Assembly (NCBI GenBank): GCA_964487045.1 | Contig: CAZAOT010000001.1 | Coordinates: forward strand, 4,875-68,874 | Length of the DNA: 64,000 nucleotides | Source of the DNA: an uncultured Candidatus Saccharibacteria bacterium | GTDB taxonomy: Bacteria > Patescibacteriota > UBA1384 > DTJR01 | Reading direction: 5' to 3' | Shown: in pieces, positions 4,702 to 51,995 of the stretch | Layout: each line of letters starts with the position of its first letter | Numbering within the stretch: position 1 is the stretch's first letter | The notes under the pieces: generated by a model | Database searches by the model: none | The model's input: only the letters and a program-made list of their open reading frames with translations | Told to the model about the DNA's origin: nothing | Program-made: the position numbers and the translations under genes

Positions 4702-4730
4702 TTGACTAATTTGGGTTTCTCGATTAGATT
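4702..4730 (+). promoter_or_regulatory. sigma70-type promoter of the pse operon
   Basis: TTGACT (4702-4707), exactly 17 nt, then TAGATT (4725-4730), about 29 nt upstream of the pseB ATG. The track ORF start at 4702 is the TTG of this -35 box. Confidence 0.6.
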
Positions 4731-4758
4731 AGGGAAAGCAAAAATTAACTCAATCATT

Positions 4759-5757
4759 ATGCTCAATCGAAAATCTATACTTATTACTGGAGGGACTGGA
4801 TCTTTCGGAAAGAAATTTACCAGTCGCATCCTTAAAGAGTACAAACCAAAAAAGATAATCATCTACTCTCGCTGCGAATATAAGCAGTATTTAATGAAAA
4901 AAGAATATGCCAAGCATGCTGACAAATTGAGATTCTTTATTGGTGACGTCAGGGATGGAAAGAGACTTAGAAGAGCAATGGAGGGGGTTGATGTAGTGAT
5001 TCATGCGGCTGCTTTAAAGCATGTTGATGCGGCCGAATACAATCCGATGGAGGCGATCAAGACCAATATCGAAGGAGCCAGGAACGTAATTGACGCGTCT
5101 CTGGATCTTGAGGTAGGTAAGATTGTCGCTCTTTCTACTGATAAAGCTGTTAATCCGATAAATTTATATGGTGCTACTAAGCTTGTTTCCGACAAGTTGT
5201 TTGTTTCCGCCAATGCGTATGTAGGCAAGAAGAAGACAGTCTTTTCGGTGGTAAGATATGGCAATGTTGCTGGTTCGAGGGGTTCGGTTGTTCCGTTTTT
5301 CAAGTCGCTAATTGATAGTGGGGCAAAATCTTTGCCGATTACCGACAAAAGAATGACCCGATTTTGGATTACTCTTGATCAAGGCGTTGATCTGGTGTTT
5401 AGAGCGATTAAGGAGTCTAAAGGTGGAGAAATTTATGTTTCAAAGATCCCTTCTGTAAAAGTTACTGACTTAGCGAGCGCAATGGCGCCAGATTTAAAAC
5501 AAAAAGAGATAGGTATAAGAGAGGGAGAGAAGCTTCATGAGGTAATGATTACTGAAGAAGATTCGAGAATGACCTATGATTACAAGGATCATTTTATTAT
5601 TTACCCTCACTTTGACTGGTGGTCAGTTAAAGATTATTTTAAAAAGGGTGGCAAGAAAGTTCCGGATGGATTCAAATATGCCTCAGATACTAATTCGCAC
5701 TGGCTGAGCATCGAGGATTTGGGAAAAAGACTAAAAAAAATAGACTTAGTTGATTAA
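4759..5757 (+). CDS. pseB: UDP-N-acetylglucosamine 4,6-dehydratase (inverting), PseB/FlaA1 type
   Basis: ATG at 4759 ([20 protein letters not shown]...). Polysaccharide-biosynthesis SDR with TGGTGSFG and YGATK. First gene of the pse operon. Confidence 0.88.
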
Positions 5758-5758
5758 A

Positions 5759-6922
5759 ATGGGCAAATTCATTTCTTATGGCAGGCAGTTTATTGATAAA
5801 GATGACATTAAGGCTGTCGTCTCAGCCTTGAAGAGTGATTTTTTAACTCAAGGTCCAGAGGTGGTTGAATTTGAACGAGAGATTTGCGCTTACACTGGGG
5901 CAAAATATTGTGTTGTTGTCTCGAGTGCTACTGCAGGACTCCATATTGCTGTTCAGGCGCTTAAAATTAAACCAGAAAGCGAAGGAATAACTACCCCGAA
6001 TACTTTTGTCGCCTCGGCTAATTGTCTTATCTATAACTCAATCAAACCAGTTTTTGCCGATATCGATAAGCAAACCTATAATATTTCATTTGAAGAAATA
6101 AAAAAGAAAACAACGAAAAAGACCAAACTTATAGTTTGCGTAGATTATGCTGGTCAAGTTTGTGAAGCAGAAAAAATCAGCAAATTTGCTAAGAGCAAGG
6201 GAATATACTTGATAGAAGATGCTGCGCACGCCATTGGCTCGCAATATAAAAATGGCGCCAAAGTAGGAAGCTGCCAATATTCTGATATGACTGTTTTTTC
6301 ATTTCACCCGATTAAGAATATGACCACGGGTGAGGGAGGAGCGGTTACCACAAATAGTAAAGAGCTCTACGAAAGACTCTTGCTCCTCAGGTCTCATGGG
6401 GTTGTTAAAGATCCAAAGAAGTTATCTAAAAATCCTGGCCCTTGGTACTACGAGATGATTTCAATAGGGTACAATTATAGGATGAGCGATATCTGCGCCG
6501 CGCTTGGCAGAAGTCAGCTCAAAAAATTAGATAAGTTCATTGCAAGAAGAAGAGATATTGTAGATCAGTATAATAAAGCTTTTAAAGATTTGAAAAATGT
6601 CACGATTCCTTTTGAGCAGCCTGGCGTAAAAAGTGCATTCCATCTTTATACTTTGCAAATTGATTTTAAAGCAATTGGTAAAACACGTTCCCGAGTTATG
6701 GAAGAGCTCCGCAATCATTCAGTGGGCTCTCAGGTTCTTTATATTCCAGTGCCTACCCAGCCGTTTTATAGACGCTTTGGTTATAAAAAGGGGGATTTTC
6801 CGGTTGTCGAGTCTTATTATGAAAAGACGCTTAGTATTCCGCTTTATCCCGCAATGAGCGCAAGTGATGTTAAAAAAGTGATTAACGCTTTAAATGAAAC
6901 AATTAACTCGAGTCAGCTCTAG
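5759..6922 (+). CDS. pseC: UDP-4-amino-4,6-dideoxy-N-acetyl-beta-L-altrosamine transaminase (DegT/DnrJ/EryC1 family)
   Basis: About 387 aa PLP aminotransferase (SFHPIKNMTTGEGG lysine motif). ATG at 5759, just after the pseB stop. Position within the pse operon. Confidence 0.85.
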   Translation: MGKFISYGRQFIDKDDIKAVVSALKSDFLTQGPEVVEFEREICAYTGAKYCVVVSSATAGLHIAVQALKIKPESEGITTPNTFVASANCLIYNSIKPVFADIDKQTYNISFEEIKKKTTKKTKLIVCVDYAGQVCEAEKISKFAKSKGIYLIEDAAHAIGSQYKNGAKVGSCQYSDMTVFSFHPIKNMTTGEGGAVTTNSKELYERLLLLRSHGVVKDPKKLSKNPGPWYYEMISIGYNYRMSDICAALGRSQLKKLDKFIARRRDIVDQYNKAFKDLKNVTIPFEQPGVKSAFHLYTLQIDFKAIGKTRSRVMEELRNHSVGSQVLYIPVPTQPFYRRFGYKKGDFPVVESYYEKTLSIPLYPAMSASDVKKVINALNETINSSQL

Positions 6923-7982
6923 CGCAGTAAAAGTAGTATTTTTTGTCGTTTTTATTCTATGCGCAATAATCGCTGTCGCGATAGTTGTTATGTCAATAAA
7001 ATCTCCCTGGTCCAGTAAGCCTCAAATCAAGGAAATTGCTAATTTTGAAAGGCCTTTCTGTGTGGCGCAGGATTCGCAAGAAAGGATATTGGTTTGCGAC
7101 TTTAATGTTAATCAGATTAAGATTTTCGATCAGGCGTTAAAGCCGGTTAGTGTTATCGGGCAAACAGGTACTAAGCAGGGGGAATTTAACAAGCCTCATT
7201 CGATAGATTTTAATTCAAAATCAGAGATTATTGTCAGCGATTATGCGAACAAGCGCGTTCAAAGATTTTCACGAGATTTTGATTTTAAATCTTATCTTGC
7301 GTCTGATAAAAAACTACTGGGTCCCGCTACGGCTTATTTCGGAGGGGATGGCAACCTATACGTAAGCGATTATGACTCAAGCTCTCTTTTAAAATTTGAT
7401 AAAAATGGAAAGTATTTAGGCTGGATAGGAGCCAAGGAGGATGGAAGTCTGACCGATGGTTGGAATCTCTCCGGGAATTCGACTAATTCAACTTCTCCAG
7501 GAGGATTCGATCGCTTGCATGGGGCAAAAGTTGATTCAAATGGCATGATTTATGTTGTTGATTCGTGGAATCACCGCGTCCAGCGTTTTGACGAGGATGG
7601 TAAATTTCGTGGTTTTATCGGCAGCAGGGCGGATGGAACGCTGACCGACGGCTGGGAGCTTGAAGGCCAAGTGACTGCCAGTCAGCTTCCAGGGGGATTT
7701 AATGTACCAATTGCCATCGAAATTTCAGGTGATGACCTGTTCGTCCTTGAGTTTAAGAACGCCAGAATTCAAAGATTCTCAAAATCAGGCGAATTCCTGG
7801 GCTGGTATGGCGGCATGAAAGACGGGGGTCTGACGCCAGGATTTGTTAAATCTGGTTTGTCGATGGAAGGTAATGAGCCCGGTGCTTTTAAAGAGGCTTA
7901 CGATCTCAAGATATATGAAAATAAAATTTTTGTAGCCGATACTGGTAATAAAAGGGTTCAAATTCTAACTTTTGACAAATGA
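6894..7982 (+). CDS. membrane-anchored NHL-repeat (six-bladed beta-propeller) protein
   Basis: 362 aa. N-terminal TM helix (VVFFVVFILCAIIAVAIVVM), then repeated NHL-like units (...D..N.R(V/I)Q(R/I)F...). Overlaps the pseC end by 29 nt. Confidence 0.75.
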   Translation: MKQLTRVSSSAVKVVFFVVFILCAIIAVAIVVMSIKSPWSSKPQIKEIANFERPFCVAQDSQERILVCDFNVNQIKIFDQALKPVSVIGQTGTKQGEFNKPHSIDFNSKSEIIVSDYANKRVQRFSRDFDFKSYLASDKKLLGPATAYFGGDGNLYVSDYDSSSLLKFDKNGKYLGWIGAKEDGSLTDGWNLSGNSTNSTSPGGFDRLHGAKVDSNGMIYVVDSWNHRVQRFDEDGKFRGFIGSRADGTLTDGWELEGQVTASQLPGGFNVPIAIEISGDDLFVLEFKNARIQRFSKSGEFLGWYGGMKDGGLTPGFVKSGLSMEGNEPGAFKEAYDLKIYENKIFVADTGNKRVQILTFDK

Positions 7983-51538: not shown

Positions 51539-51551
51539 TCCCGAATCTTAC

Positions 51552-51592
51552 AAGGGACGCTCCGCCTTGTGCGGTACGTCCCTTTTCCTTTT
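51552..51592 (+). terminator. intrinsic terminator between convergent island-8 genes
   Basis: AAGGGACG (51552-51559) pairs with CGTCCCTT (51577-51584), followed by TTCCTTTT. Confidence 0.6.
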
Positions 51593-51648
51593 AAAAGTAA
51601 AACGCCCCCCGGACCGTTGGCTCGGGGCATGAGGTTGGCTGGCCGGTG

Positions 51649-51924
51649 CTACTTCTTCTTTGGCCACGCCGGGCAGAGGACGAAGGCAAGCAAGGTGAAT
51701 CCGAGCGCGATGGGCGTTCCGAGGAACGCCCAGGCGACCCCGCTCCATCCCCAGATGGCTCCGGCTGTGACGCACCACCCGATCCATCCGGCGATCCCGA
51801 TGACAAGGGTCCAGAGAATCTTGTCGCCGGCATGGCGGATCCTGGGACAACTTAGGCCGATGAAGACAGCGGCCAAGAGCAATCCCCCTCCAACCGAAAT
51901 CAATGCGGGTACCATCGCACCCAT
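51649..51924 (-). CDS. orphan Trp-rich three-TM protein (GC-rich island 8)
   Basis: 91 aa (MGAMVPALISVGGGLLLAAVFIGL...WIGWCVTAGAIWGWSGVAWAFLG...KKK); the start may be the second Met at 51915. Overlapping ORFs in other frames look like shadows. Confidence 0.6.
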   Translation of the reverse strand: MGAMVPALISVGGGLLLAAVFIGLSCPRIRHAGDKILWTLVIGIAGWIGWCVTAGAIWGWSGVAWAFLGTPIALGFTLLAFVLCPAWPKKK

Positions 51925-51966
51925 CCTTTCTGTTCTGTTGCCAGATTGTCAAAACGCGATCTGGAT

Positions 51967-51995
51967 ATACTAACTCAAGGACAGCTATATTGCAA
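51967..51995 (-). promoter_or_regulatory. sigma70-type promoter for the 51924-51649 gene
   Basis: On the minus strand: TTGCAA (51995-51990), exactly 17 nt, then TAGTAT (51972-51967). Confidence 0.55.

Follow-up and report, generated by a model that had tools for sequence, protein, structure and literature searches.

Phage morons are independent transcription units in prophage genomes and were first described in HK97 and HK022 (PMC3594210). Here we consider nine transcription units of high guanine-plus-cytosine (GC) content in a 64,000-nucleotide (nt) stretch of the chromosome of an uncultured, probably ultra-small bacterium, from what is probably a lineage of the Candidate Phyla Radiation (CPR, also called Patescibacteria) related to Candidatus Berkelbacteria; the whole of this stretch is called the window. 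Like morons, the units have a promoter or candidate promoter of their own, one or more open reading frames (ORFs) and a terminator, together with a composition unlike that of their neighbors, and some of them (unit 6 of the window and a further unit in the relative designated L098) appear as additional DNA between genes that adjoin each other in related genomes. They differ from morons in lying among tRNA synthetase, tRNA and sugar-biosynthesis genes rather than in a prophage, in that several are conserved at fixed sites across deep divergence, in having no phage-family matches save for one PHROG family on a PlsY domain, and in that every unit starts head-to-head with a neighbor. The description that suits the units best is that of moron-like modules residing in a cellular chromosome.

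Three other systems invite comparison. Integron cassettes are similarly compact, mostly single-gene and atypical in composition, and the integron Pc promoter would be the counterpart of the resident promoters behind which an earlier note on this DNA had supposed that promoterless cassettes were captured. An origin as integron cassettes was nevertheless rejected, there being no pair of attC cores (RYYYAAC/GTTRRRY) near the 3' end of any GC-rich unit; the two candidate cores in the whole window both lie elsewhere, and the 3' hairpins of the units are perfect terminator stems followed by T-runs. The units also differ from cassettes in the lack of an IntI integrase here and in being scattered, each with its own promoter or candidate promoter and its own terminator. 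Horizontally acquired genomic islets are the subject of an amelioration model reportedly due to Lawrence and Ochman. Like such islets, the units are atypical in GC content and codon usage at all three codon positions, several adjoin tRNA genes, and one lies within a tRNA-integrated recombinase element. Unlike them, they have no donor that we could find among 5.8 billion proteins and 1.84 billion representatives, they show no amelioration despite near saturation of synonymous sites, and the same contrast recurs in five genomes. Among the marks of recent transfer, closer homologues in a donor of matching composition were not found in these searches, and units 1, 2, 7 and 8b are not absent from earlier-diverged relatives.

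The third comparison is with hot spots of GC-biased gene conversion. The Fxy gene of the mouse pseudoautosomal region is said to be fast-evolving and GC-enriched at such a hot spot, and a correlation between recombination and GC3 (GC at third codon positions; GC1 and GC2 are defined likewise) has reportedly been seen in bacteria. At these hot spots, as in the units described here, raised GC3, amino acids with GC-rich codons and faster protein divergence occur together; the difference is that we have no evidence of recombination at the units, and we know of no GC-biased conversion in bacteria that is of this size or has gene-sharp boundaries.

Boundaries and anatomy of the GC-rich units

The window has a GC content of about 40%, and a two-state hidden Markov model (HMM) recognizes within it eight GC-rich segments with GC of 0.53-0.61, compared with 0.38-0.42 outside. 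These eight segments correspond to nine transcription units between 24.2 and 52.0 kb, the last segment containing two convergent units. The interpretation that we favor, with some reservation, is that the AT-rich chromosome carries nine expression modules, each complete in itself, and that these are the GC-rich stretches. In order, each module has a sigma-70-type promoter or candidate in AT-rich DNA, a short leader (often with a stem-loop at its beginning), a strong Shine-Dalgarno sequence, between one and three ORFs that are GC-rich and lineage-restricted, and a strong intrinsic terminator. The products are lipid-related enzymes, small membrane proteins and proteins without a family match.

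The earlier note had placed the change in composition at the ribosome-binding site and at the terminator, and both the HMM segmentation and GC values averaged in 30-nt bins bear this out. Across the four bins from -150 to -30 relative to the start codons of the units, mean GC is 0.35, 0.27, 0.40 and 0.36; it is 0.49 from -30 to 0, 0.44 from 0 to +30, and 0.55-0.60 thereafter. At the 3' ends it is 0.61 in the 30 nt past the stop codon, where the terminator stem lies, then 0.49 and then 0.40. The placement of the promoters in AT-rich DNA agrees with these binned values and with the sigma-70-type sites described below. The compositional distinctness of the ORFs likewise extends to all three codon positions, with GC1/GC2/GC3 of about 0.6/0.43/0.65 in the units and 0.46/0.33/0.39 in native genes (the GC3 ranges being 0.57-0.81 and 0.35-0.45). 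Codon choice follows the same division: TTA accounts for 0.00 of leucine codons in the units and 0.19 in native genes, and the corresponding values are 0.71 and 0.29 for ATC and 0.76 and 0.37 for AAG. Promoter hexamers and the region around a start codon are AT-rich by function, and only the translated region and the terminator stem bear the GC-rich composition. We suggest that the switch is sharp because the boundary between regulatory and translated DNA coincides with the boundary in composition.

The units are also marked by their translation and termination signals. A Shine-Dalgarno duplex energy of -6 kcal/mol or lower is found for 10 of 12 genes in the units and for 10 of 45 native genes, the starts of the latter being those of the longest ORFs, uncurated (Mann-Whitney P = 4e-5). 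Most native genes lack a recognizable Shine-Dalgarno sequence, 35 of the 45 being weaker than -6 kcal/mol (for example those at 8634, 9122, 10171, 20161-22164 and 32302-33474). A G+C-rich hairpin lies 3' of the last ORF in every unit, with a T-run behind most of them, and the five strongest terminator-like hairpins between 23 and 63 kb are all at 3' ends of units. All nine units start head-to-head with the neighboring gene, which is a native protein gene or tRNA gene for seven, the recombinase of its own element for unit 4 and the gene at 52025 for unit 8b; at five of the eight sites the unit is antiparallel, between two co-directional native genes. Single-sequence folds give several leaders a stem-loop near the 5' end, with z from -2.0 to +1.3 and thus not individually significant, and an alignment fold of three unit 2 leaders was uninformative, the hairpin being misaligned by indels.

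All seven hexamer pairs that the earlier note reported were recovered by a regular-expression search where it had placed them, on the same strands and each with a 17-nt spacer. The native contexts given for two of them are also correct, namely the pse operon (PseB, PseC, PseI and PseF score above NCBIfam cut-offs) and the tRNA-Arg gene at 38245-38321. Six of the seven match TTGACA/TATAAT at 9-10 of 12 positions, and a further 10/12 site that was absent from the earlier list (TTGATA-17-TAAAAT, 38153-38125, minus strand) would serve the 38-kb unit, unit 3. Measured against background, the pairs are enriched by position upstream of the units; taken as isolated pairs they do not go beyond chance, with a density of about 46-49 per 20 kb on both strands compared with 29-38 in shuffles. 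Pairs with a 17-nt spacer occur at 1.41 per kb per strand in non-coding DNA and at 0.415 in coding DNA. For the positional test we took the 130 nt 5' of eight start codons of the units, with shuffled sequence as the control. Sites matching at least 9 of 12 positions were present in five of the eight regions, whether the spacer was allowed to be 16-18 nt (1.5 regions expected from shuffles, P = 0.008) or held at exactly 17 nt (0.54 expected, P ~6e-5). A sigma-70-type site of the form TTGnnn-17-TAnnnT was found for six of the nine units, with the -10 hexamer ending 42-71 nt before the start codon. Promoters of the units and native promoters are often back-to-back, 20-50 nt apart, and units 2, 3, 6 and 8b have a predicted native partner. 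To judge from these sequence features, the predicted promoters and terminators are presumably in use.

The features of the units are as follows.
24190-24218, plus strand: unit 1, predicted promoter TTGACT-17-TATTTT
24300-25722: first GC-rich HMM segment
24269-25675, plus strand: unit 1, ORF of 468 amino acids (aa), TTG start after Shine-Dalgarno GGGAGG, GC 0.53, GC3 0.61
25691-25724, plus strand: unit 1, predicted terminator hairpin, common to the convergent native gene 25743-26318
27769-27797, plus strand: unit 2, predicted promoter TTGATT-17-TATACT, back-to-back with a native minus-strand site at 27747-27718
27804-27868, plus strand: unit 2, leader with 5' stem-loop CTCAAGA/TCTTGAG, motif TTGACATAG (27844-27852) and Shine-Dalgarno AAGGGAATGG
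27901-30851: second GC-rich HMM segment
27869-29638, plus strand: unit 2, ORF 1 of 589 aa, PlsY acyltransferase domain (residues 1-206) and reductase-like domain, GC 0.56
29635-30804, plus strand: unit 2, ORF 2 of 389 aa, N-terminal half glycerol-3-phosphate dehydrogenase-like, GC 0.57
30822-30852, plus strand: unit 2, predicted terminator, 14-bp stem followed by a T-run
38125-38153, minus strand: unit 3, predicted promoter TTGATA-17-TAAAAT (10/12), back-to-back with the tRNA-Arg promoter
38097-38089, minus strand: unit 3, motif TTGACATAG ahead of the ORFs, with Shine-Dalgarno GGGAGAGGG
37229-38049: third GC-rich HMM segment
37943-38077, 37706-37927 and 37271-37423, minus strand: unit 3, three paralogous small membrane-protein ORFs
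37231-37264, minus strand: unit 3, predicted terminator, 15-bp stem followed by a T-run
40194-40892: fourth GC-rich HMM segment
40226-40846, plus strand: unit 4, ORF of about 206 aa, GC 0.56, GC3 0.70, with a hairpin after it at 40870-40893
42409-42692: fifth GC-rich HMM segment, GC 0.61
42438-42635, plus strand: unit 5, ORF for a 65-aa basic protein, Shine-Dalgarno AAGGATGG
42656-42691, plus strand: unit 5, predicted terminator hairpin followed by a T-run
43678-43706, plus strand: unit 6, predicted promoter TTGATT-17-TATTAT, back-to-back with the tRNA-Ser(TGA) promoter at 43636-43608
43779-44567: sixth GC-rich HMM segment
43751-44179 (142 aa) and 44201-44512 (103 aa), plus strand: unit 6, ORFs, GC 0.55-0.60, GC3 up to 0.81
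44536-44567, plus strand: unit 6, predicted terminator, 14-bp perfect stem followed by a T-run
47496-47524, plus strand: unit 7, predicted promoter TTGACT-17-TATATT (10/12), divergent from the class-I tRNA synthetase gene
47534-48770: seventh GC-rich HMM segment
47576-48730, plus strand: unit 7, ORF for a family-4 glycosyltransferase of 384 aa, GC 0.58, GC3 0.70
48747-48768, plus strand: unit 7, predicted terminator, 9-bp stem (8 G-C pairs) followed by T8
51221-51926: eighth GC-rich HMM segment
51245-51538, plus strand: unit 8a, ORF of 97 aa, GC 0.53
51552-51584: probable bidirectional terminator, a hairpin that separates convergent units 8a and 8b
51649-51924, minus strand: unit 8b, ORF for a 91-aa membrane protein, segment GC 0.58
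51967-51995, minus strand: unit 8b, candidate promoter TTGCAA-17-TAGTAT (8/12)

The protein of unit 1 matches no Pfam, NCBIfam, PHROG or PADLOC family and is restricted to the lineage, and the same four collections give no family match for units 4, 5 and 8a. The second domain of the PlsY fusion of unit 2 resembles a long-chain acyl-ACP reductase (PDB 6jzq, E = 6e-9), and homologues of the unit 7 glycosyltransferase carry the annotation diacylglycerol glucosyltransferase. Among the GC-rich genes three are lipid-related, namely those for the PlsY fusion, the glycerol-3-phosphate-dehydrogenase-like protein and the diacylglycerol-glucosyltransferase-like enzyme. To our knowledge, CPR bacteria are generally thought to lack lipid synthesis, so that such genes are unexpected in this lineage; most of the other GC-rich genes encode small membrane proteins, as both ORFs of unit 6 apparently do. 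The units may hold variable envelope functions of the lineage. The three tandem paralogues of unit 3 share an IFCGG..AIIS-like motif, with direct repeats of 21-28 nt at 37308, 37764 and 37986. The 284-nt block at 42.4-42.7 kb that holds unit 5 was considered as a structured RNA and rejected, since it had no Rfam match at E up to 1; its folding energy, too, is unremarkable on both strands (z = -0.8 and -0.6). At gathering thresholds Rfam finds only three tRNAs in the window, which disposes of structured RNA genes as an explanation for the GC-rich segments generally.

The motif TTGACATAG has only two copies in the window, each 17-25 nt before a start codon of a unit (units 2 and 3) and right before a purine-rich Shine-Dalgarno sequence. 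It is kept in the unit 2 leaders of three relatives (L083 at 14527, L085 at 9976 and L086 at 280), and in L098 (about 2470-2500) a GC-rich ORF that is unrelated has a similar TTTTGACATCATTGGGAGAAGG ahead of it. Because it is too near the start codon for a -35 hexamer, it may be a shared leader or translation signal. The palindromic -35 hexamer of unit 8b, TTGCAA, is also used by a plus-strand site at 51990-52018 (TTGCAA-17-TATAGT) that faces the gene at 52025.

Homologues, promoters and empty sites in related genomes

Relatives of the GC-rich genes are few. A word-indexed search of 5.8 billion proteins returned one relative of the unit 1 protein and about five close homologues of the PlsY fusion, and an exhaustive HMMER search of 1.84 billion representatives found seven members of the unit 1 family; the best matches to the unit 7 glycosyltransferase, at 39-42%, come from the same lineage. 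Wherever the context of a homologue was readable, it proved to be a syntenic and AT-richer chromosomal setting (L083/L084, L085, L086, L095, L097 and L098). The homologous genes have GC of 0.57-0.62 in L083 (neighbors 0.41-0.49), 0.55-0.61 in L085 (0.35-0.48), 0.54-0.59 in L095 (0.38-0.47), 0.56 in L097 (0.43) and 0.55-0.56 in L098 (0.38). Units 1, 2, 7 and 8b keep their sites in relatives that share 53-87% identity with the window in native proteins, and units 1, 2 and 7 are present in every sampled relative. These four units would be older than the split of the sampled relatives and inherited at fixed sites, and units 6 and 8a, together with extra units in L091, L098, L001 and L083, would be the part of the repertoire that varies between relatives.

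The divergence over which the contrast has persisted is considerable. Within conserved residues, identity at four-fold sites is 0.24-0.52 and mostly 0.28-0.43, which is near saturation. Across five genomes, GC at two-fold sites is 0.65-0.72 in the units and 0.31-0.43 in native genes, and at four-fold sites it is 0.62-0.69 and 0.41-0.62, the synonymous contrast being seen in all five of the genomes tested. The proteins of the units diverge faster than their neighbors, with identities from undetectable to 64% as against 53-87%. Identities between lineages are as follows.
Unit 1 protein: 57% (L083), 32% (L098), detectable by hhalign only (L085, E = 2e-4)
PlsY fusion of unit 2: 46-64%
Glycerol-3-phosphate-dehydrogenase-like protein of unit 2: 25-33%
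Unit 7 glycosyltransferase: 39-43%, the adjacent native glycosyltransferase being at 86%
97-aa ORF of unit 8a: the L095 counterpart has the same length, position and orientation and is GC-rich, with no detectable similarity

Between the window and L085 the unit 1 proteins share only colinear motifs, such as DGQTFRMS. Unit 7 lies beside a paralogue, the two family-4 glycosyltransferases at 47576-48730 and 48777-49958 being about 40% identical; the former has GC3 of 0.70 and a counterpart in L095 at 42%, the latter GC3 of 0.42 and an L095 orthologue at 86%. In a neighbor-joining tree the glycosyltransferase of the unit groups with the adjacent AT-rich paralogue family, at a modest bootstrap of 59/100. 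Head-on conflict between replication and transcription was considered as a cause of the fast evolution and does not fit, since cumulative GC skew suggests that the plus strand is the leading strand and most of the units would then be co-directional.

The promoters are conserved together with the ORFs. In unit 2 the -35 hexamer, the 17-nt spacer, the -10 hexamer, the leader hairpin and TTGACATAG before the Shine-Dalgarno sequence are kept in L083, L086 and L085, a comparison that covers two other lineages, as L083 and L086 are near-identical. The promoter reads TTGAAT-17-TATACT in L083 and L086 and TTGATT-17-TACAAT in L085, and in L086 and L085, read by eye, the hairpin retains its pairing through changes on both sides of the stem. 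For unit 1, position and spacing are kept by eye in L083 (TTGACG-17-TAATTT) and L085 (TGGACA-17-TAGATT); the scorer confirmed the L085 site (9/12) and did not return that of L083, where the -10 hexamer matches at 3 of 6 positions. The GC-rich homologue of unit 7 in L097 has TTGACA-17-TAGAAT (11/12) and a similar leader. The native 191-aa gene convergent with unit 1 (25743-26318, minus strand) has an extended -10 sequence, TGCTATAAT, that ends 8 nt before its ATG (26319-26345) and is kept in three relatives (L083 at about 12095, L085 at about 8565 and L098 at about 2250, the last as TGTTATAAT), which suggests that its mRNA is leaderless or nearly so.

Two comparisons show a unit present in one genome and absent from another. 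Where unit 6 lies, 1058 nt of the window comprise promoter, ORFs and terminator, and L091 has about 100 nt, in which the end of a TPR-repeat gene (59% identical), a terminator and the tRNA-Ser promoter are found and the whole unit is absent; either gain or loss could account for this difference. L098 has an extra GC-rich unit of about 860 nt, with its own TTGACA-17-TTTAAT, that separates the 191-aa gene from the HIT gene; these two genes are 33 nt apart in the window, and L083 and L085 likewise have only short gaps. Insertion in the L098 lineage is the simplest reading here because three relatives are without the unit. Both indels include the AT-rich promoter stretch, and neither empty site has a spare promoter region facing that way. 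We infer from this that modules come and go whole, and would be gained and lost as units between native genes.

Further GC-rich units, most of them with the same layout and unrelated to those of the window, occur in L091, L083, L098 and the Candidatus Berkelbacteria genome L001. Their ORFs (L091 899-1681, L083 650-1594, L098 2536-3093 and L001 7181-7585 and 9478-9792), with GC of 0.51-0.70, have no family match. In L091 an ORF of 70% GC lies directly downstream of tRNA-Ser(TGA) with TTGACT-17-TATAGT; the L083 unit has a 314-aa ORF with TTGATT-17-TATTAT, the L098 ORF encodes 185 aa, and L001 has one unit with TTGCAA-17-TATCAT and a second with a weaker site. Other CPR loci among the matches listed have no such segments, save for two weaker ones in the Parcubacteria genome L073, and a full-text literature search on GC-rich genes in CPR genomes gave no relevant match.

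Explanations for the composition of the units

Several findings weigh against reading the units as self-contained modules. The pair at 51995 on the minus strand (TTGCAA-17-TAGTAT) matches at only 8 of 12 positions, units 4, 5 and 8a have no upstream site of at least 9/12, and native Shine-Dalgarno use is perhaps understated by the uncurated starts. No insertion mechanism is visible: units 1, 2, 6, 7 and 8 have no flanking direct or inverted terminal repeats, which led us to reject transposon-like insertion, and the sole recombinase is the one tied to unit 4. Nor is there a visible source, as three scans of viral contigs (IMG/VR) gave no relatives, PADLOC gave no matches, and the only PHROG family is one of unknown function on the PlsY domain, so that a phage or defense origin was also set aside. 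The most serious difficulty concerns time. As a rough estimate, a four-fold-site identity near 0.4 corresponds to about 0.6 substitutions per site per branch, and for an assumed equilibrium GC3 of 0.4 the GC3 excess should by now be down to about 40% of what it was at the split, which would call for an implausible starting GC3 near 1. If units 1, 2 and 7 have been vertically inherited for so long, simple amelioration should have removed the excess, and more than acquisition once followed by retention must be acting. The PlsY fusion has codon-position GC of 0.62/0.42/0.64, values that reportedly fit the Muto-Osawa relationships at a genomic GC of about 57%, without sign of amelioration. What holds the coding parts some 20 GC points above their neighbors is left unexplained by the module reading; either a force acting in place or continual exchange of alleles with an unsampled GC-rich pool of the same lineage could be the cause.

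The former possibility, which we regard as tentative and less likely than not, is that the genes are vertically inherited and that a gene-confined force keeps their GC high and speeds their evolution, for which selection for GC-rich and long-lived mRNAs (with a 5' stem-loop and a strong 3' hairpin) or local GC-biased gene conversion at recombination hot spots are candidates. This reading addresses what causes the composition, and a modular architecture does not conflict with it. The similar GC margin of the same genes in five genomes with four-fold sites near saturation, the unameliorated codon positions, the faster divergence of the proteins and the failure to find outside donors all speak for it, as do the grouping of the unit 7 glycosyltransferase with the family of its AT-rich neighbor, the confinement of the composition to translated region and terminator, and the leaders that start with a stem-loop; the colinear but diverged unit 1 of L085 fits divergence in place over replacement. 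Set against this are the shift in amino-acid composition as well, leader stem-loops that are not individually significant, and the presence or absence of whole units among lineages, which implies that a source of ready-made GC-rich units exists. Polymorphism data do not allow substitution bias to be tested, since same-species contigs are 99.99-100% identical and the L083/L086 pair offers only 7 single-nucleotide polymorphisms, and we know of no gene-delimited force of about 20 GC points established in bacteria. The alternative of continual turnover, which seems to us unlikely, treats the sites as hot spots at which GC-rich modules, supplied by a plasmid, phage or sister lineage that has not been sampled, are inserted again and again or exchanged through recombination; genes would never stay long enough to ameliorate and would look fast-evolving because alleles are swapped. 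This accords with the differences in presence between relatives, the non-homologous 97-aa ORFs at one site in the window and L095, the position of unit 4 within a serine-recombinase element at tRNA-Arg, the tRNA genes that adjoin units 3 and 6 and the extra unit of L091, and a leader motif, TTGACAT with a purine-rich Shine-Dalgarno sequence, that is common to unrelated units of different genomes. It is hard to reconcile with searches in which no member of such a pool appeared among the 5.8 billion proteins, the 1.84 billion representatives or the IMG/VR viral contigs, with the same syntenic AT-rich chromosomal setting of every homologue whose context could be read, and with the lack of recombination sites or repeats around units 1, 2, 6, 7 and 8.

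Capture of promoterless cassettes of ORF plus terminator (integron-like, or retro-copied mRNAs) behind existing promoters, as the earlier note had proposed, is in our judgment highly unlikely. It would account for the change in composition at the ribosome-binding site and its end at the terminator stem, and promoters of the units do share AT-rich divergent regions with native promoters; such regions can fire both ways, and the palindromic -35 hexamer of unit 8b serves both orientations. In relatives, nevertheless, promoter and leader are kept along with the ORF (units 1, 2 and 7), the promoter stretch falls inside the indel in both presence/absence comparisons, the two empty sites have no spare outward-facing promoter, and each unit has its own promoter or candidate, with a site found for six of nine. 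There are also no attC-like sites or flanking repeats, no integron integrase and no co-oriented array. The premise that plain transfer would bring flanks of donor composition is weak, as sigma-70-type promoters are AT-rich and a whole transcription unit would carry its own; for the same reason the selective amelioration of flanks, which the earlier note offered as an alternative, is unnecessary, although it may have occurred, and it does not explain why the ORFs themselves have not ameliorated despite near-saturated synonymous sites. No GC-rich donor was found that would bear out a foreign origin of the ORFs. Hardly credible, finally, is the idea that the hexamer pairs are AT-rich noise and the GC-rich blocks mis-assembled foreign reads. 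Sites of 9/12 do occur about every 400 bp and one of the seven is only 8/12, but the positional enrichment (P = 6e-5) and the conservation of the sites in relatives argue otherwise. Independent Logan assemblies from four sequencing runs are 99.99-100% identical over several GC-rich junctions, and the same blocks occur in syntenic relatives; an assembly chimera is ruled out because the independent assemblies match across the junctions.

Returning to the modules and their composition, it is conceivable, although we would hold it doubtful for now, that a defined, fast-evolving subset of lineage-restricted, membrane- or lipid-associated genes in this lineage is actively held about 20 GC points up across deep divergence, by a force that stops at the edges of the translated region and could be local GC-biased conversion or selection for stable, GC-rich mRNA bounded by a 5' stem-loop, a strong Shine-Dalgarno sequence and a strong terminator. 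Such maintained GC-richness, if true, would mark a separate compartment of the genome and not a foreign origin, and a gene-delimited force of this kind would add something new to the factors that shape bacterial genomes; if the units come instead from a hidden mobile pool rich in GC, these organisms would have a replicon that is so far unsampled. It is routine to take atypical GC content as a sign of recent horizontal transfer. Here the blocks look unameliorated yet lie at fixed sites in relatives with near-saturated synonymous sites, and no donor was found, so that composition alone would mislead.

The tRNA-Arg element and the surrounding chromosome

Unit 4 is the only unit in a tRNA-integrated element with a serine recombinase, and the element both encodes that recombinase and is bounded by repeats of a tRNA 3' end. 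Its extent and the adjoining native promoter are as follows.
38205-38233, plus strand: native promoter TTGAAA-17-TAGTAT of tRNA-Arg(GCG), whose gene is at 38245-38321
38301-41208: integrated element, whose ends are a 22-nt exact direct repeat of the tRNA-Arg 3' end (38301-38322 and 41187-41208)

Resolvase, Recombinase and Zn_ribbon_recom domains make up the match of the large serine recombinase, which is encoded at 38307-39902 on the minus strand. An inverted repeat of 100 nt (38316-38415 and 39817-39916, 98% complementary) covers about the first 28 and the last 30 codons of the recombinase, and perfect 95-nt inverted repeats (39910-40004 and 40970-41064) lie around the ORF of unit 4, with a CTGGTAC core at all four repeat junctions. 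A promoter-like TTGACA-17-TATCCT (39896-39924) spans a junction, its -35 hexamer being in one repeat and its -10 hexamer in the other. On this arrangement the element looks like a double inversion switch; with unit 4 flanked by repeats and the promoter across the junction, inversion could toggle expression. The tRNA-Arg itself (38245-38321) has the anticodon GCG, where bacterial tRNA-Arg usually has ACG.

The neighbors of the units encode class-I and class-Ib (Trp/Tyr-type) tRNA synthetases, an HIT protein, a cyclophilin, a family-1 glycoside hydrolase and many glycosyltransferases, and the window also holds a pseudaminic-acid operon and three tRNAs. The native promoter of that operon is placed as follows.
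4702-4730, plus strand: native promoter-like site TTGACT-17-TAGATT, 5' of pseB, the likely start of which is the ATG at 4762

The class-I synthetase has its best match, among the GTDB species-representative matches listed, at 57% identity in a metagenome-assembled genome of Candidatus Berkelbacteria, for which reason we take the organism to be a probable, so far unsampled member of the CPR. ORFs of at least 80 aa are missing from two stretches of some 400 nt, one at 34148-34570 beside tRNA-Ser(GCT) and the other at 36829-37229, between the gene at 35701-36828 and the unit 3 terminator. Beyond the last unit, two adjacent ORFs of 1967 and 1487 aa (52712-63063) carry LamG, FN3, DUF2341 and purple-acid-phosphatase-N domains and combine an unusually high GC2 (0.48) with a low GC3 (0.35); from their domains, they are probably surface proteins.

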